Shown piece after piece: positions 15,420 to 58,239 of a stretch of 64,000 nt of DNA. The position numbers and the translations under genes were made by a program. The notes beneath the pieces were generated by a model. The model was not told the DNA's origin. It did no database searches and saw nothing but the letters and a program-made list of their open reading frames with translations. Within the stretch, counting starts at the first letter, position 1; each line of letters starts with the position of its first letter. Origin of the DNA: Yuukianura sp. NJ FZ-2021 (Eukaryota); the NCBI GenBank assembly GCA_046563655.1, contig CM102284.1, positions 4,030,001 to 4,094,000 on the forward strand, written 5' to 3'.

Positions 15420-18336
15420 TTAAACGTTGTTCGCAAACTTCAATTTCGTCTTAAGAATGTTTGGGTTGGACATCAGGAGAGCATCCAGCTGAGCCTTCAC
15501 TTGAGCAAGTCGTGTCTTGTCACTTTTCAATGTTTTCTTCGCCATTGTTTTACCGCCACTAAAACCAAAAAACTTACGTTGACGTTCGATATTCGATAGA
15601 AAAAAAATTACAGAATGCCTCTTACGCATCAGAATCATCGCCATCTTCTGAAGAGGAAGCTATGTCCATGTCTTTCTTTGCCTTTTCAATCCAGTTTACA
15701 TCAGCCGACCTTTTTCGAACTTGATGTTCAAATTGCTCCACCTTCATGGCTAAATCAACTCGACTTTTCAGTTCGTGTAAAAGTTGTCGATCTACAGGAA
15801 ATGTCGGCAACGCCTCTTCTGAAACAAAAAAAAAAATGGAGATGAATGAATATTTAGCAGCTAACTGTAACAGGTTACATCGAAAACGACGAATTTTATG
15901 CCAACCTCGTCCGAGTGATTTTGAAATATTCCAGAAGCTTGTTGTCTCTGATGGTTCAATGAGGACTAATGCCAAACCCCCTTTGAACGCCCGTGCTGTT
16001 CTCCCACTACGATGGATGTAACTCTGTAACAAACGTACAAAAACCCAAATAAATGCAACGGGTACTGGACATTCCCATGATTAGGAATCGTCGAGTGAAA
16101 ACCATTCTTAAAATATAATGTACCAAACACTTTCGCTTACTTACCTCTGCGGTCTTTGGAACTTGAAAGTGAATAACGTGCTGAATGTTGGTAATGTCAA
16201 GGCCCCTTGCTGCTATATCGGTTGCGATTAAAATTCCGTTCTTGTTTTCGGCAAAACGTTCCAAACTCCGTAAGCGCTGCTTCTGAACCATATCAGAATG
16301 GAGCGCAAGTGGATCCAATTTCAGAAGGTAAAAGAGATTAACTAGACGTCTGACACAATTGATCGAGTTGCAAAACACAATCGTTCTCCCGGGGTGGAGA
16401 AGGAAGAAGTAATAGAGAATTGCCTCCTTTTGGTCTAGCTGGCAAGTCAAGCTCATCTCGACGAGTGTTTCACAAGTGCCTTTTCGACTGGTAATATCCA
16501 CAACCTTGGCTTGGGTTTCGTCTATACCCACCATGTTCATTATTTCGCGTAGCTTAACTTCTGGGTCAACTTTCTTCTTTTCCAAAGGCCGCTTCAGCTT
16601 CTTTAAAAGCCTGGAAGGGTGTTCATGAGTGAAGGACAAAGTTGCAGAGAACACGAAGTTTTGGCGGAGTTTGACTTGGTTTTCACTTTGGTTCAATACT
16701 TCTAGAATTCCCTGCAGTTCCTGGAAATGGCCCCGTTCTACCATTCGATCCGCTTCGTCTATAGCCAAGTAGCGGATTTGATTCAAAGTTGAAAGGTGTA
16801 CGTTTCCATTTTGAACCAGTTCCCAAAACCTGCCAATGGTTGCAATTACTACTTCCGGTTTCAAATTAAGTAAACGCTCTTGTTTTTGTTCTGACAGCCC
16901 ACCCACGATAACGACAATCTGTATTTAAAAAAAAATGTGAACGCACAAATACACTTTTACGTACTTAGAACTGAGTTGTTTTTTTCTACCTTTATTCCAG
17001 TGTACGTAGAAATCGTGTCCATGTGCCGCTTGATTTGAACGGCGAGTTCTCGCGTAGGTGCCAAAATTAGTGCTTGTAAATTGCTAATTTCGTTTTCGCT
17101 TTTGTCTTTCATCGATGATTGCCTTTCCCTATCTTCCATAATGCCTTGTAAGATGGGAATAGCGAAAGCAAGTGTTTTCCCGCTTCCAGTTTCCGCTGCG
17201 CCTATTACATCCTTCTTGCCCAAAAGCGATGCCATTAGTGTCAAGTTCTAGAAAATTATAGCATAAGAAATTATCAATGTATTTCTCGATATTGGTACTA
17301 AAGAGCTGATTAATAGATAGAAGAGTACTAAATACCTGAATTGGAGTTGGCTTGTCAAATTCGGCCTCCGCTAGCGCTCTTAGAATGGATGGGTGGACAC
17401 CTAATTTGGCCCAGGTTTCCATACTGAAGGCTGACGATACTGGACCATCTACGACGATGGCCTCAGGTTTAGTGTCTAAAGCTAATTGACGTACTGTTTA
17501 AGCAACAAAATCTGAATTAGGAAATTAACTGTAGAAGATACTGGGGTGAACTTTACGTTGTCACGTCTCACCCTTCGTTGAGTTTAATCGTTTTGGTTTC
17601 TTTTTCTGAGCCTGTGGAGGTTTTCTGCTTGTTCTTGACTCGCGTCCGTTCTCATTGTGTTTTTCCACTCCGATCACGATCCATTCAGATGTCGAAGGAG
17701 ACGCGGAATCATCTGGTGGGAGGACGGATTTTCGTATTTTTACTTTCTTTGGTGTTCCGGTTTCGTGTATTTCTCCAACCGCACGTTTCCTCGTGCCGGC
17801 AGAGCCATTCTTCTGTGTTCTGCCGTTTTTCGGTATTTCATTTTCACTTAGAACGGATTCTGCTGGTTCATCTACCTTGATTCCATCTTCATGGATTTGC
17901 CGATTAAAGAGTCCGATTGGTTGTGCTAAAATTTCAAAGTACTCAAATTAATGGCATGACATACATCATTTGGTTTGGTCTCCGTCTCTGATCTTTTTTC
18001 TGTTCCATGCTTCGTCCATATCCAATAGTTACACACACCACTTGCCTCCATTCAACTTCAAGATCAACTGTTTTTGTAGTTTAACAATAATATTGGTAAT
18101 ACGTATTGTTATTACTTATATTACAAAACGAAAGCAAAAAATGATTTACCCCCAGCAATGATTTCTCCGTTTTTATCAATGGAATAGTCAGTTAGTACTT
18201 CCAAAGAAATTAGATGTTCGAAATCGTTCTCGGAGAAGAAATCCGCTTCACCAGGTGGATCATCAAACTTTTCCCGGTCATTCCTTGCCTTTAAACCAGC
18301 AGATACAGGTTTTTTCGACGTCAATCGCGACTTCAT
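15420..18336 (-). CDS. DDX24: DEAD-box RNA helicase DDX24/Mak5
   Basis: Q motif [64 protein letters not shown]-terminal [10 protein letters not shown]. Confidence 0.92.
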
Positions 18337-18847: not shown

Positions 18848-19067
18848 CAGTATTTTTCTACTATCGTTAAAGCTTACTTCAACCCAATTTAGTACCCTCA
18901 CGTGCAAACTTCCCCGTGGAATTTCCCCTGCCGCTTTTTTTCTCTGTTTTTTCAATGAGAAACATAACGGGTTCAGGGAATAGTCAGGTAAGTGTGAGTT
19001 TTAATTAGCAATTAATTTAGGAATTAATTTCATTGCGATTTTTTTTAAAACGAACAGCGTTGAAAAA

Positions 19068-19841
19068 ATGCCAAAAGCCACTTGGAACGGAGTCGTGCTT
19101 GCGGAATCTCCGAACACCGTCATTGTTGAAAACAATCACTACGTAAGTTTCCTGGATTTATAGCCAGTGTTTTTATTTTTATGGTAAATTAAAATTATTA
19201 TACCTAGTATTTATTTAAAGCCTGGGTCATGCATTAAGACACATGCCTTCCATCAACCAAAAAGTTTTTTAAAAAAACTGACATTTAAGCATTAATTTCA
19301 GAATTCGATTTTAGAGTGTTATTGGAATAGTTAATTAACTTAATTGCCGGTTTTCTTGATGGTTTCAGTTTCCAATAGAATCTTTGAAAATGGAGTACTT
19401 CCAACCAAGTGAGAAGAACACCACTACCACATGTTCATGGAAAGGACAATGTCAATACTATGATGTCATCGTCAATGGTAAACCATTAACACTTCCGTCA
19501 GCAAAAGTTGTGTAAAACTTAATCTGTTAGCACATTAAACAACCCGACACTTGTCACGGGTTGTCGTCTTCCCTATAATTCAGTAATCTCCCACATCGGG
19601 AACTAAAAACCAATTTTTGCGTGTTCTCAATAGGTAACAAGAATCCCGATGCTGCTTGGTAAAACTTCAAATCAAATCTATAAGTTTTATAACTCCAATC
19701 GACCAATCGGTTTCAGAGTAACTAACTTCTAAATTGTCAATTTCTGTGTTCCTTAGGTTCTACCCATCGCCAAAAGAGGCAGCCATGAATATCAAAGGAA
19801 TGGTCGCCTTCTGGAAAGGAGTCCAAATTTACTCAACTTGA
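19068..19841 (+). CDS. DUF427 (NTP_transf_9) domain protein, 97 aa, 4 coding exons
   Basis: Exons 19068-19142, 19369-19477, 19634-19658, 19757-19841 (all GT-AG, phases compatible, 294 nt) give MPKATWNGVVLAESPNTVIVENNHYFPIESLKMEYFQPSEKNTTTTCSWKGQCQYYDVIVNGNKNPDAAWFYPSPKEAAMNIKGMVAFWKGVQIYST*. Confidence 0.92.
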
Positions 19842-20677: not shown

Positions 20678-21663
20678 TCATTCCGAATTGGACCTGGAAC
20701 GTGAATGTCGTGGCTTCTCATCATTGTTGCGTTCGGCAGATCGGCTTCTATAAAAACAAAGTTTGAAAATTAGAAGACAATTTTGGATATAATCTTAAAA
20801 GTTAAAAGTGGCTCAGTTTAGTCACTTACCGCGATTTAGATTTGCCACGCCCACGCTCAACCGAACGAGACTTGGATTTGGATCGAGGTCGCGGAGAACG
20901 TGATGCCGACTTCGACTTGGGTGTACGCTCTCTCCTGCTGCGACGGGATCTGGAGCCCGACCGATCTCTGGTCTTTGATGACGATCGTCTGTGTGAACGC
21001 GAGCCTGACCGAGAACGCCTGCGTGAACGTCCATCGGAACGACGACGTCCTCGGGATCCAGAACGTGAACGACGATCGCGTCCACTGCGTCTATTATGCG
21101 GAGAAGCAGGACGTCCATATCTGATGTATTAAAATATATAGATCTGCCGTTCACACCGAAGTAAGGTGAATAAAGTTAAGCGACAGCGATAAATTACCTT
21201 GCCATCTGCACTCGCAGTTCCCTTCCATCTAAAACGCGTCCATCTAAGCTGTCCATTGCGTCTTCGGCATCCCTCCGGTCATGAAATCTATGGAAACACC
21301 ATTATGATACTAAAACTACTCAAACTGACATATTTTTACAACTGTGTATCTGTGTGGTGCAAAAACTAACCGAACAAAAGCGAATCCACGAGATTCTTTC
21401 GTCCAACGATCCCTTGGAATGTACACGTCACCAACTTCTCCGTACTTCTCAAAAACTCGCCTCAAATCATCTAAACAAAACCAAATCAAACCGATTACAA
21501 TCATCCTTTAGTCCCAGAGATTCCAAGGATAATGAATGCTCCATTAACTACTAATTACCTAACTAAACTACTTACCAGGAGTCGTCCGGAAGGTCAAATT
21601 GTCGACCTTCAGCGAAACCATTCCTTCAATCCTTGGAGGAGGATGTCCATACGAAAAACTCAT
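20678..21663 (-). CDS. SRSF2: Serine/arginine-rich splicing factor 2 (SC35)
   Basis: [91 protein letters not shown] followed by an RS domain; 5'UTR intron at about 21741-21927. Confidence 0.96.
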
Positions 21664-21929: not shown

Positions 21930-23025
21930 ATTACTTCGATGATTGAGTCTTCAAGTCTAATTAACCAATTCTAATTAACTTCTAATTCACCAAAGTAAGT
22001 ACCCCACTTTAGAATACTCCCCTCCTTGTCCTTCTCCTTGATAAAAGTGTTGCGAACGAAATGGTGAATGGTGTAGTAATGGTAAATTGGGGTCTCGAAC
22101 GAACCGACCAAAGCATACAGCAGCGGGAGCGGCGGGCGGCGTATGGAAATGAATACAGAGGGTAACGGTATTTCAGGAGGAGGGGTTCGGTTTGTCGGTA
22201 TCGTTCGACTTCGTACCGCAAAACCGGAATTCGGCAAGTTACTGTAGGATTAATGCGGTTGACGTAAACGTTCCTAGCAATAGTTGTATCTAATCATCCG
22301 CTACCGCTAATAATATTTACAACAGTTATCTGGTATTGTATTTACCTTTAAAAAATGCAAGGTTTAAAACTATGAAGGACTACTGCAAAAAATTTTTTCA
22401 AGATACAGAATACGACTGTATGTTTTTAAATTCTAAATCTCGCGACAGGTTAGGAATGTATTATCGTCAGATGTTGAAGCGGGTACAACATTTGAGACAA
22501 AATTTAAGCCAACCGTCGTGTTATGATTTGCATTTTGCAATAGGAAGTTTCTACCATAGACATACACATAAGAAGGAGGAAGCTTAAAAAGAGACAATGA
22601 TTATTGAGGTGAATTGACCGAGGCATTATTGAGAGCGACTCCTTAATTAATCAATTAACATTATCAGAACATATCATTATAATATTGATAACGTTTGGTC
22701 CAGTGACTTCACTGGTTATGGTCGGTTAATGTTATTATTATGCCCAGCTTTGAAGCATGGAATTTTGAGTGCTCTTATCACCTCCTCATGGATGTTTGGG
22801 GGTTCGCGTTCGCCCCTCGTGTATATTTTAAATGAATGAATCAAACACGGGAATATCAATGTTTAGCGGGTGAGCCACGTCATGCTGATTCTCTTTTACT
22901 ATTAATTTATTAGCCTTTCATAATTAAGTGGAAGGATTAAGTAATTTAATTAACTTAAGTAACCTAAATTAGTTCAATCACATTATTTAACTTTCACTTC
23001 CTGGAAATTTACAGAAACTGGAACC
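21930..23025. promoter_or_regulatory. Divergent promoter region SRSF2/Sec24
   Basis: Head-to-head genes; locally GC-richer patch at 22080-22240. Confidence 0.4.
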
Positions 23026-26000
23026 ATGAATCCTAACCCTGGACAACAACCGGTAGTATCCAACTTTCAGAGACCTCAACATTCTCAACCTCAAGTGTCC
23101 ACCATGCCAAGTAATTATGCTTCACAACATCAGCAAAGTCTGTACTCACAGTTACCGCATCATCAGCAAACGCCAGTGGTCTCGTATCCAACAGCGCCAG
23201 CAGTACAATCTCCAGTAGCTCAGTATCCGGCAACAGCGCAAACGCAACCGCTGCAAACTGGCTACCAACACCAACCGATTTTACAACGTCCGGCTCAGCC
23301 TCCGAACACTGGAAATTACAATGGACACGCTCCTGGACCAGTTACAACAGCTCCACCGGTTCAACAGCCAAACTACTACCCTCATCCCCAAGTTCAAACG
23401 CAACAACCGCTATCGCAAGCACAACGTATTCAACCTCCTCCTGGACCTTCAGCAAATTACGCAACTCCTCAACCTCAGCAGATTCAGCCCAATCATGACC
23501 CGCAGATGAGCACTTACAACGGGTATCATCCGCAGCAGAATTTCCAGGCCCCAGCTCCACCTCAACAGGGCCAAGGTTACAGCAATGACGTTGGGTCAAT
23601 TTCCAGAGCCATGGGAGGGTTATCCGTAACACAGCAAGGTTTCAACAGACTTTGGGTAAAATTCTTCTTCTCAAGTATCGTTTTTTGATAATATTTGAGT
23701 AAGGTTGACTTACCAGAATTTCTTTTGTAGGGTAACGAGTCGATAGATTTACTGAAGCAGAGGCAGATCTTACCTGCAACTGGAGTCAAACCTCCGGAGA
23801 TACGGTTTCAACATGACTATATGAATTCGATAAATTGTAGTCCAGAGTAAGTCTTCAGACTTGAGACAGTCTAAGAAACACTACACGAACAATTTTGTCA
23901 GCAGCTAATCATTGATTTCTTTGTCATTTACAGCATATTTAGATGTACCCTAACGAAGATTCCGGAGACTAAGGCGCTGCTGCAAAAGGCACGACTTCCC
24001 TTAGGCATTTTAATTCACCCGTTCAAAGATTTAGCGGTACGGGTACGCATTTGTTTTTAAACAGAATTTTACTTGGGAGATATTTAGTAAATACAGAAGT
24101 CTTTGTATTCAGACGATATTGCTTTCTTTTCACAGAATCTACCCGTTATTCAATGTAATACAATTGTCCGATGTCGATCCTGTCGAACTTATATAAACCC
24201 ATTTGTTTACTTCATCGATCCACGACGGTGGAAGTGTAACCTCTGCTCCAGGCTGAATGATCGTAAGTTTGACCAGACAACTACTATTCATAGCAACCTT
24301 ACCTAAAGAAAAACTGGAGTTTTTCTACTGAACAATCAGCGAACGTTTTTGCAAAAATCTCACATTACCCCAATGCCGTTGGAAATTCTAACCTTCAAGT
24401 AATTCAATAATAATTAACTATTACTTTCGTTTTTAGTTCCAGAAGAGTTCCATTACGACCCAGTCACTAGAACAAGCGGAGACCCCGCAAGGCGACCGGA
24501 AGTCCGTTCAGCGACAATTGAATTTGTAGCTCCGGTGGATTACATGGTTCGTCCACCACAAGCAGCAGTTTATCTGTACGTCCTGGACGTCACTTCAAAC
24601 GCTATTGATACGGGGTATTTGAAGACTGTCTGCGACATACTCCTAGATGAACTGGATAAAATTCCAGGAGACAGTCGTACACAAATCGGATTTATAACGT
24701 TTGACTCGGCAGTGCATTTTTATAATATGGCAGCAGGGTTAAGTCAGCCTCACCAATACGTCGTTTGTGATATTAATGGTAAATTGACAAAAAATTGATG
24801 AAACTGACAAAAAGTATTCCACATCTTGACGTTTTTTCTGTTTACTTTGCAGATATTTTTGTTCCATGTCCCACTGATTTGCTTGTGAATTTGGATGAGT
24901 CGAAAGAAATTGTACGGCAGTTACTAACTTCTCTCCCTACGAAGTTTCTGAACACGGCGGACAATCAATCGGCTCTTGGGGCTGCGCTGCAGGCTGCACA
25001 AAAAATGATGGTAAGCACGCAGTTTAGAAATTATTTTATACTGGAAAACATGCAACTTCTTTGGTTATAGGCACCGATTGGCGGGAGAATTACAGTTTTT
25101 CAGTCATGCCTTAGTACAATTGGGCCAGGGTCGCTTGCTAACCGTGAAGTAACAGTCAAGACCGTGAAGGATATTCCACCAATTCTGAATCCCAGTACCG
25201 ATTTCTACAAGAAAATTGCTCTGGAATGCTCTCAACAATATATTGCCGTTGATCTTTTCTTCATCAACAACCAATATGTCGATATTGCCTCAATTGGATG
25301 TGTATCCAAATTCTCTGGTGGAAGTATCTACCAGTTTCCCAATTACCATGCAACGGATAACCCTTCACAAAGTTATTCGTTCGAACAAGCATTTCAGCGT
25401 TACGTCACAAGAAAAATTGGATTCGAAGCTGTTATGCGAGTCCGTTGCAGCAGGTTAGTGAGCAAAACTGTTTAAATTCTAAATATTCCTAAGTGTGCAT
25501 AATGGCGTTGAAAAACTTCAGTTTACTGATCAATTTGATTCAATTTGACCTCTTTTTTTTGTTGTGTAGAGGGCTGTCGATTCACACATTTCACGGCAAC
25601 TTTTTTGTGCGATCGACTGACCTCTTGAGTCTACCGAACTGCAATCCCGATTCAGGCTTTGGCATGCAAGTGTCAATCGATGAACCACTGAGTGATTTTC
25701 AGACTGTTTGTTTCCAAGCTGCCTTGCTTTATACTTCAAGTAAAGGTAAGCAGATTCCCTACTTTATATGCCTTTACAGCGATTTAGTTTTAGACCTGGT
25801 TTGTTACCTCAACGTTATAAAATCGTTGCTTTTGTCTCAGGTGAAAGGCGAATTAGGGTCCATACGCTATGTCTTCCTGTTGCTGGGAATGTTAACGACA
25901 TCATCTGCAGTGCCGACCAACAATGCATTATCGGCCTCTTAGCGAAAATGGGTAAGAAAAATTAGTCAACTCGGAATACTAATTGCAGAAATGAAATTAA

Positions 26001-41356: not shown

Positions 41357-43082
<1,726 letters not shown>

Positions 43083-56583: not shown

Positions 56584-58239
56584 ATGGATTCAAGCGAAAA
56601 CAATATCTGCATAACACCGTCGTGCAATTTACCGGCTAAATTGCAATGTCCGACTTGTATCAAACTGAATATCGAGGGATCTTACTTTTGTTCTCAGGTA
56701 GCTGATGATTGCTGTGTGCTAATTGAGTCTTAATTAATCTATAATTATGTGATCGCCTCACTGACTGCATGTCATTAATCGTTTTACAGGAATGCTTCAC
56801 CAGCAACTGGCGTGCTCACAAAGCAATTCACAAATCGACAACTGGAGCTTCCAGTAAATACGATGCTACAAAACTTACATAACTTTGTTACATTTCTAAA
56901 CAACACGACAATTCAACTTTGATTGGTTAATTATTAATTTATATTGTTTCATTTAGAAGATGAGGTTAAGACCAGCAAAACAAGTCAGGAAAGTTACAAC
57001 CCGTGGCCAGGATACCGTTTCACTGGTAAACTCCGAGCTTTTCCTGTCACCCCAACCCGAACTGTGCCTGACACAATTCAGCGTCCAGACTACGCTACCA
57101 ATGCTGAAGGACGGCCTATTAGCGAGCTTGCCCTGCGGGGTACTTCCGTTGTGAAAGTCCTTACGGAAGAAGAGATGGAAGGCATGAGGATTGCCTGCAA
57201 GGTATTTTAAATCAAACTTATCTTGATGTTTGTTTGTCACTCGTCATTGTCACTTTCTTTATTAAGCTTGGTCGAGAAGTCTTAGATGAAGCAGCAAAGG
57301 TAATTGGTGTTGGTGTGACTACAGAAGAAATTGATCGGGTGGTCCACGAAGCTTGCATTGACCGAGAGTGCTATCCTTCGCCCCTCAACTACTACAAGTT
57401 TCCAAAGTCTTGCTGCACATCGGTCAACGAGGTAATCTGCCACGGAATTCCAGATCGACGACCTCTTGCCGACGGCGACATTTGTAACGGTATGTGACCT
57501 GTTAGGTAGTCTTATTTTGCTCCTGCAAGTTCTAATCCATTGTCTGTTTCATGTTCAGTCGACATCACGGTGTACCATCGAGGATTTCATGGTGATCTAA
57601 ATGAAACATTTTTAGTGGGAAATGTATCTCCTGACGCTAAGAAGCTTGTCAAGAATACTTGGGAGTGTTTGCAGAAATCGATTGAGATGGGTATGTGCAA
57701 ATCAATTTTTTAGTTGCAATTGACGTTAAGATGTTATGTTAAAACAATTTTTCTTGCTTCTAGTGAAACCGGGAGTACGATACCGGGATATTGGGACTGT
57801 AATTCAAAAGCATGCTCAGAGTGATGGGTTCTCAGTTGTCCGTAGCTACTGCGGACATGGGATCCATCGTCTATTTCATACTGCCCCGAGCATACCTCAT
57901 TACGCAAGTGAGTCAAAAACTGAATCAATTCCTGGCTGCTTCATCTTTAAATTGAGCAGTACTGCTTTGGTTTTTACGTTCGAATTTACTTACTGTTATA
58001 ATTTTGTTTCAGAGAACAAAGCCGTTGGAGTAATGAAGCCTGGCCATACGTTTACAATTGAACCGATGATTTCCGAAGGGACCTGGAGAGATGAACAGTG
58101 GCCTGATGAATGGACTGCAGTGACTCAAGACGGGAAGCTGTCGGCTCAATTTGAAGAAACGCTGCTTGTGACGGATACTGGAGTGGAAGTATTGACGCGC
58201 CGTCGGGAGAAGAACGGCCAACCGTACTTCATGGATTAA
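56584..58239 (+). CDS. METAP1: Methionine aminopeptidase 1
   Basis: N-terminal zinc finger [92 protein letters not shown]. Confidence 0.97.

Follow-up and report, generated by a model that had tools for sequence, protein, structure and literature searches.

An intron-bearing DUF427 gene among native genes of a springtail: a probable old acquisition from a microbe

The genome of the springtail Yuukianura sp. NJ FZ-2021 carries, in a stretch of 64,000 nucleotides (nt) of contig CM102284.1 (assembly GCA_046563655.1, positions 4,030,001 to 4,094,000; hereafter the window, in whose own numbering all coordinates are given), a small gene for an intact, stand-alone protein of 97 amino acids (aa) that belongs to the DUF427 family. 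We hold, with moderate confidence, that this host-integrated gene stems from an old transfer from a microbe to springtails, the likeliest donor being a bacterium, and that it was subsequently intronised, maintained by selection and kept for a role in thiol redox chemistry; the direction and the age of the transfer are what we infer from the evidence below. In the sequence of events that we envisage, a microbial, most likely bacterial, DUF427 gene would have entered the springtail lineage long ago and would then have gained spliceosomal introns and the base composition of its host; it would have stayed under purifying selection, with a homologue persisting in Folsomia candida. The protein, which has no signal peptide, would probably be cytosolic. 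Its working residue would most likely be Cys47, at the tip of the central beta-hairpin, to which the window lineage would have added Cys53 on the same face of the sheet, and the most likely activity of the protein would be in the redox chemistry of thiols or of thiohistidines of the ergothioneine type, not on nucleic acids or metals.

The four coding exons of the gene (Table 1) join in frame into 294 nt, encoding 97 aa followed by a TGA stop codon at 19839-19841. An earlier note on this DNA, made from the sequence alone, had proposed a four-exon gene with GT-AG introns (exons of 75, 109, 25 and 85 nt; 97 aa), and its coordinates, lengths, splice sites and reading frame all proved exact. The introns are AT-rich (28-39% GC, against 43% in the exons), and the splice sites and frame suggest that the four exons are joined in vivo. 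In a Pfam scan, which was done exon by exon, the peptides of exons 1, 2 and 4 matched PF04248 (DUF427, id NTP_transf_9) in the correct order; the score of exon 2 alone (35 bits) exceeds the curated cut-off of the family (22.1 bits), which excludes a chance match. Exon 3 supplies positions 63-72 of the 93-position profile in alignments, and full-length alignments with homologues cross all three splice junctions without a gap. Thus, the assignment to DUF427, originally drawn from motifs, holds in the profile matches as well as in the family motifs, which are retained.

The protein keeps 33 of the 35 columns conserved in the family, a conserved column being one with at least 90% conservation among 291 full-length homologues, a sample biased to close relatives. 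The motifs N-x-Y-F-P, C-x-W-K-G, Y-Y, A-A-W-x-Y and A-F-W-x-G-V are all present, and the sole departures from the conserved columns are G22N and A53C. Cys47 (within C-x-W-K-G), the unusual Cys53 and a rare insertion of two aa all fall in exon 2. The conserved Cys is encoded by TGT and not, as selenocysteine would be, by an in-frame TGA. Gly22 is likewise missing from two environmental fragments, P0121 and P0126, the latter of which shares Cys53 as well; their likeness to the window protein at these residues hints at a small related group.

Upstream of the coding exons, the motif CAG/GTAAGT, pointed out earlier as the donor of an intron in the 5'-untranslated region (5'UTR), is present as a motif, with its GT at 18988; a candidate acceptor with which it would pair is the CAG at 19055-19057. 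Spliced to 19058, the upstream frame reaches a TGA after one further codon, and the putative leader would therefore add neither an N-terminal extension nor a signal peptide to the protein. With the putative 70-nt leader intron removed, the upstream open reading frame (ORF; ATG at 18955) stops 5 nt before the main ATG. Neither AATAAA nor ATTAAA is found within 560 nt downstream of the DUF427 gene.

Bacterial contamination is excluded for this gene, because it carries introns and is flanked by native genes. On both sides, within about 1 kb, lie intron-bearing animal genes with arthropod-type best matches, the linkage by which horizontally acquired metazoan genes are recognised; the gene was thus rightly taken, in the earlier note, not to be a contaminant. 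Its position had been described as lying between DDX24 and SRSF2. The first of these names stands: a 305-aa exon of the upstream helicase gene finds its best named matches in DDX24 of the springtails Orchesella dallaii (62% identity), O. cincta (61%), Folsomia candida (59%) and Allacma fusca (57%), with insects, crustaceans, molluscs and birds below them at about 48-57%. By these matches the window belongs to a springtail-type hexapod, whose own proteome is absent from the database. For the downstream gene, the support extends to an RRM and an RS-rich region, SRSF2 being a candidate name. Around the DUF427 gene there were no transposon-like repeats, Rfam families or second gene copies.

Table 1. 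The DUF427 gene, its putative leader and the two flanking genes in the window (positions are those of the 64,000-nt stretch; E, expectation value).
Feature	Position	Strand	Details
Possible non-coding leader exon	18955-18987	+	Short upstream ORF (ATG 18955) ending at putative donor; from sequence only
Putative 5'UTR intron	18988-19057	+	70 nt; GTAAGT...AACAG; from sequence only
Coding exon 1	19068-19142	+	75 nt; aa 1-25; ends in phase 0; PF04248 positions 2-23, E 0.005
Intron 1	19143-19368	+	226 nt; GTAAGT..TTTCAG; 28% GC
Coding exon 2	19369-19477	+	109 nt; PF04248 positions 30-62, 35 bits, E 1.3e-8
Intron 2	19478-19633	+	156 nt; GTAAAC..CAATAG; phase 1, in Gly62
Coding exon 3 (micro-exon)	19634-19658	+	25 nt; aa 62-70; aligns with the N-x-D-A-A-W block of all homologues
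Intron 3	19659-19756	+	98 nt; GTAAAA..CCTTAG; phase 2, in Trp70
Coding exon 4	19757-19841	+	85 nt; aa 70-97; PF04248 positions 73-93, E 0.0011
DDX24-like DEAD-box helicase gene	15622-17947	-	Several exons; Pfam DEAD and Helicase_C; head-to-head, upstream, about 1.1 kb from the DUF427 gene
SR-protein gene	20826-21507	-	RRM_1 exon 21316-21507 (E 3.3e-8), RS-rich exon 20826-21128; tail-to-tail, about 1 kb downstream

Relatives were sought in a large protein database with exon 2 as the query (phmmer, 1.84 billion representatives), and the spliced protein was then compared with them by script. Exon 2 gave 26 matches at E<=1e-3. Among 30 relatives that were looked up, the named ones were LOC110861097 of Folsomia candida, two proteins of Microbotryomycetes and one protein from a metagenome-assembled genome (MAG) of Gemmatimonadaceae, and three of the clusters bore only the generic label 'DUF427 family'. 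A word-index protein search with the 51-aa stop-to-stop frame around exon 2 scored no match. Folsomia candida is the only named animal match to the window protein; with its protein (XP_021965902.1, 125 aa) the spliced protein shares 64-65% identity over aa 4-94. With uninterrupted ORFs of 92-95 aa on GC-rich metagenome or bacterial contigs it shares 58-68.5% identity from end to end: 68.5% with the sequence P0226, 65% with locus L075, about 62% with loci of Planktothrix and Planctomycetaceae and 58.5% with the Gemmatimonadaceae type. Identity to the fungal DUF427 proteins is about 50%. A metagenome scan with the environmental sequence P0135 gave at least 80 bacterial-type loci, a genome scan with another relative, P0122, gave a best match of 64%, and a search of the ESM Atlas with P0122 returned solely bacterial DUF427 clusters.

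The top match to exon 2, P0121 (a contig of 1069 nt), is apparently intron-less and AT-rich, and it has the same two-aa insertion and the sequence C-S-W-K-G. Its frame shifts by one base after Y-Y-D-I-V, and the remaining family sequence is recognisable in another frame; P0121 may be a pseudogene, an error-containing transcript or a representative of a donor-like lineage.

With the Folsomia protein as the query, 5371 proteins matched at E<=1e-8. Among the best 120 of these there was no animal other than Folsomia, although dozens of arthropod, mollusc and vertebrate proteomes are in the same database, and the named entries were cyanobacteria (Synechococcus, Trichocoleus and Planktothrix) at 69-74% identity. 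The best bacterial-type matches to the window protein score 129-136 bits, against 125 bits for Folsomia, and metazoans other than springtails are absent from the 26 and 120 matches listed. Once springtails are set aside, the pattern of similarity would thus be, qualitatively, that of a transferred gene.

The bacterial DUF427 (COG2343) proteins of Planktothrix, Planctomycetaceae and the Gemmatimonadaceae MAG (MGI8508991.1) resemble the window protein in their length (92-95 aa), their M-P-K-A-x-W-N-G start and their motifs; they differ in being encoded without introns on GC-richer contigs and in having Gly22 and Ala53 in place of Asn and Cys. The Folsomia protein is likewise a stand-alone springtail DUF427 with all the family motifs. 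However, its N-terminus is extended by a hydrophobic stretch of about 26-30 aa that resembles a signal peptide, and it has a C-terminal tail that ends in A-E-L, neither of which is found in the window protein; it lacks the two-aa insertion, has Ala in place of Cys53 and is closer to the cyanobacterial proteins than to the window protein. To judge from these termini, the acquired protein may be targeted to different compartments in the two springtail lineages. An environmental sequence, P0168 (a contig of 984 nt), shares the extension and the A-E-L tail of the Folsomia type.

Several lines of evidence suggest that the gene has long been domesticated. The coding sequence has a GC content of 43.2%, and of 48% at third codon positions (GC3), as compared to 40-47% and 35-46%, respectively, in nine native exons of the window; the composition is host-like, lying within or just above the range of the native exons. 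The contigs of the bacterial homologues are mostly of 50-73% GC. Since the foreign composition has been lost and three introns gained, yet the residues are still conserved, the gene appears to be under purifying selection.

Two environmental relatives bear on the age of the introns. P0128, which is 76% identical to the Folsomia protein, has an in-frame insert of 23 aa exactly at the equivalent of the Y25/F26 junction; the insert starts with V and its last residue is Q, which is how a phase-0 GT...CAG intron would be translated, and homology stops at the equivalent of Gly62. P0135 starts with '..FQ' before the equivalent of Phe26 and stops directly after that of Trp70. Frames of the window give the same read-through signatures: 19360-19515 starts with W-F-Q-F-P and 19579-19662 ends with A-A-W and a stop codon. 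Thus, P0128 and P0135 resemble what prokaryotic gene calling would produce from intron-bearing relatives, and they appear to share intron positions with the window gene. If they are springtail genes, the introns would predate the split of the window lineage from the Folsomia lineage. Together, the homologue in Folsomia and the apparently shared intron positions indicate that the event would be old and not private to the genome analysed here. Springtails are noted for such genes: a study of collembolan genomes reports 809 transferred genes in F. candida, 330 of them shared with Orchesella cincta (Faddeeva-Vakhrusheva et al. 2017, PMC5490193).

The fold was modelled on a stand-in, P0226, which is 68.5% identical to the window protein. 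The model has a predicted local distance difference test (pLDDT) score of 97.9 and matches 3DJM, one solved DUF427 structure, from Rhodobacter sphaeroides and with no function assigned, with a template modelling (TM) score of 0.86 and E 2.8e-7; the Folsomia protein matches 3DJM at E 5.6e-12. The next structure matches of the P0226 model, as found with Foldseek, were Yippee/Mis18, YPEL5, Mss4, the C-terminal domains of RIG-I and LGP2, and MsrB. By extension from its close relative, the window protein would have the beta-tent fold. Other beta-tent proteins (MsrB, Mss4, Yippee/Mis18, the CULT domain of cereblon and the RIG-I C-terminal domain) have the same topology as DUF427, but show no significant sequence similarity to it, and most of them have a zinc site; the paper that describes the fold states that DUF427 systematically lacks this site (PMC4287342).

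All members of the 291-sequence sample have the Cys of C-x-W-K-G, and in the P0226 model the equivalent of Cys47 ends a strand just before a three-residue turn. Position 53 is Ala in all other full-length homologues (291/291) and Cys in the window protein, and the fragment P0126 alone shares this Cys. In the strand register of P0226, the positions of Cys47 and Cys53 would lie on the same face of the sheet without being directly paired. A cross-strand disulfide between Cys47 and Cys53 was considered and is weakened, as the model pairs the equivalent of Cys47 with that of Gly51, residue 53 lying two further along the same face. The earlier note had suggested that the two Cys residues could be redox-active or metal-binding. 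A metal site is not favoured in a family described as lacking the zinc site (PMC4287342); as for a redox pair, the second Cys is on the same face but unpaired in the stand-in model.

What these Cys residues might do is suggested by the bacterial relatives, whose immediate neighbours we scanned at 80 named DUF427 loci (150 proteins). At eight of the 80 loci an EgtD-type histidine methyltransferase (Methyltransf_33, E down to 1e-101) adjoins DUF427. These loci (L083, L086, L093, L094, L119, L157, L090 and L092) are spread over three phyla, four coming from related Acidobacteriota, three from Bacteroidota and one from Planctomycetaceae. Further neighbours were two proteins with an FGE-sulfatase domain (the EgtB-type domain), four DCC1-like thiol-disulfide oxidoreductases, three OpuAC and two Pyr_redox_2 proteins. 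The largest count, 17 HATPase_c domains among the 150 proteins, is attributed chiefly to the high number of close relatives from the Acidobacteriaceae in the set of 80 loci. A recent paper lists COG2343/DUF427 as encoded alongside 5.7% of EgtB-type sulfoxide synthases (PMC13674229, 2026). Because of these egtD-type neighbourhoods, we propose, with modest confidence, a redox role related to thiols or thiohistidines and centred on Cys47.

Springtails graze on fungi that are rich in ergothioneine. One may go further and suppose that springtails domesticated a bacterial accessory protein of thiohistidine metabolism (of the ergothioneine or ovothiol type), whose invariant Cys would process or recycle thiohistidines from the diet, with the A53C substitution, on the same face of the active hairpin, making a two-thiol site in the window lineage; this is a conjecture that we think has little chance of being right. 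If true, the protein would be among the first animal enzymes to handle ergothioneine, besides the transporter, and DUF427 would be given a function. A literature search returned no link between ergothioneine and springtails.

A number of observations weigh against the account given above, both as to the transfer and as to the function. If Folsomia is counted as metazoan, the margin of an alien index is small, and distant copies in other animals may exist beyond the best 120 of the 5371 matches to its protein. The trees, obtained from 94 columns with quick IQ-TREE runs (120 and 74 rows) and with FastTree (60 rows), are star-like; in them the window protein stands amid bacterial rows on a longish branch and, in the free tree, does not join Folsomia. 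Approximately unbiased (AU) tests, run on FastTree-constrained topologies, rejected none of six groupings (p 0.15-0.61). The rare two-aa insertion before the invariant Cys points away from the Folsomia and cyanobacterial type. As for function, no ergothioneine gene adjoins DUF427 in the window, where the neighbours are the helicase and SR-protein genes; the proposed role would be carried over from the bacterial gene context alone, and nothing in the window bears on it.

In the same trees, Folsomia groups with the environmental sequences P0128, P0168 and P0169 (local support 0.73-0.96). The six groupings under the AU test were the window protein with the Folsomia group (p 0.21), with the insertion group including fungi (0.25), with P0121 and P0122 (0.27), with a wider eukaryote-like set in which the Folsomia group was joined by P0135 and P0126 (0.32), and with fungi (0.61), and a single clade of all eukaryote-like rows (0.15). 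A rejection of the insertion group (p 0.007) had been obtained with IQ-TREE -fast constrained trees; it was set aside, as those trees were poorer than the FastTree topologies. With 94 columns and star-like trees, the phylogeny thus names no donor and excludes no fungal source. The idea, put forward from the sequence, of a microbial gene fixed in an animal genome and intronised keeps its microbial type, its native linkage and its introns; the Folsomia homologue makes the event an old and shared one, and the trees do not identify the donor.

The best surviving alternative, which we still consider unlikely, is that the source was a fungus or another eukaryote, in which case introns may already have been present, and not a bacterium. 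The two-aa insertion is found in only 4 of 320 motif-bearing sequences, these being the window protein, P0121, P0122 and the Microbotryomycetes protein P0167; the second Microbotryomycetes protein, P0134, which lacks the anchor motif, also has it, as read from the alignment. The two fungal proteins (KAK4050540.1 and KAM0788000.1) further share the A-A-W-F-Y-P variant with the window protein. The joining of the window protein and fungi has the highest p value of the AU tests, the intron-bearing environmental fragments P0128, P0135 and P0140 could be fungal, and 32.8% of the transfers inferred in F. candida are fungal (PMC5490193). However, as noted above, identity to the fungal proteins is well below the 58-68% found for bacterial-type ORFs, and the fungal pair, which represents the one fungal cluster sampled, sits on a very long branch. 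The fungal proteins also differ in their C-terminal motif, A-F-Y-K-x-K-G, and both of their database models are truncated at the N-terminus.

Somewhat less probable, in our view, is that the window lineage and the Folsomia lineage took up different DUF427 genes in two independent acquisitions. The free trees keep the two proteins apart; the termini and the two-aa insertion set them in different types, as described above; and the Folsomia protein shares about 74% identity with cyanobacterial proteins but 65% with the window protein. On the other hand, the Folsomia-like P0128 and P0135 apparently carry introns at positions 1 and 3 of the window gene (and P0128 at position 2 also), monophyly of the window and Folsomia proteins is not rejected in the AU test, and an identity of 65% is consistent with the 59% found between the same two lineages for the core of DDX24.

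Very unlikely is vertical descent, in which springtails would have retained a DUF427 gene of ancient eukaryotic or animal origin that nearly all other lineages lost. It would account for the introns and the host composition, uniting all eukaryote-like rows in one clade is not rejected by the AU test, and the Folsomia matches listed are the best 120 of 5371. Yet no other named animal occurs in the 26 and 120 matches listed, despite the many animal proteomes in the database; the springtail proteins, at 58-75% identity, are closer to bacterial proteins than to fungal ones; and the family is reported mainly from bacteria and fungi (PMC4287342). Least credible of all is a silent relic or an artefact of assembly or contamination, which the missing polyadenylation-type motifs downstream and the 25-nt micro-exon might suggest, but which is contradicted by a frame intact over four exons with canonical splice sites, by the conserved columns kept despite full amelioration, by the native intron-bearing genes on both sides and by the GT-AG introns, which bacterial contaminants do not carry.

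An old transfer into springtails, with a bacterium as the likeliest donor, remains the account that we prefer, and, like other transferred genes described in Collembola (PMC5490193), this is an intact gene of foreign type that is physically linked to native ones and occurs in springtails distant from each other. The emphasis in that study is on carbohydrate-active enzymes and antibiotic synthesis, and not on small proteins of the thiol type; DUF427 is not named in its main text, the gene list being in the supplement.

The rest of the window is populated by animal genes. Further exons with Pfam matches belong to a Sec23/24 trunk domain, Bicaudal-D, COG5, zf-MYND, Peptidase_M24 (two genes) and COesterase, and the window also encodes an ammonium transporter and an SF1-like gene with KH and zinc-knuckle domains. 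The two Peptidase_M24 genes, methionine aminopeptidase-like, are separate (41976-42849 on the reverse strand and 57123-58239 on the forward strand). A long, Gln/Pro-rich, low-complexity exon without a Pfam match (22963-23688, forward strand) lies upstream of the Sec23/24 trunk exon and presumably encodes the disordered N-terminus of a Sec24-like protein. Judging by these 64 kb, the genome is compact and its introns are short.

Our literature search found no paper linking DUF427 to transfer into animals, and the family is absent from the main text of a compendium of metazoan horizontal gene transfers. Literature matches for 'DUF427' in a paper on glutamine riboswitches (DUF4278) and in one on Nematostella (DUF4271) were artefacts of matching at word starts. 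The Folsomia locus may already figure in published supplementary gene lists.

With regard to evolution, the finding is confirmatory, adding one further well-documented gene of foreign type in animals known to hold hundreds. A tiny gene of four exons, one of them a micro-exon of 25 nt, is the kind that automatic annotation misses, and screens for transferred animal genes that start from annotated proteomes will therefore undercount such genes. The DUF427 family is widespread and has been solved structurally, but has no known function; a member that an animal has retained, apparently under selection, would, along with the egtD neighbourhoods of its bacterial relatives, provide a tractable eukaryotic setting in which to approach the role of the invariant Cys.

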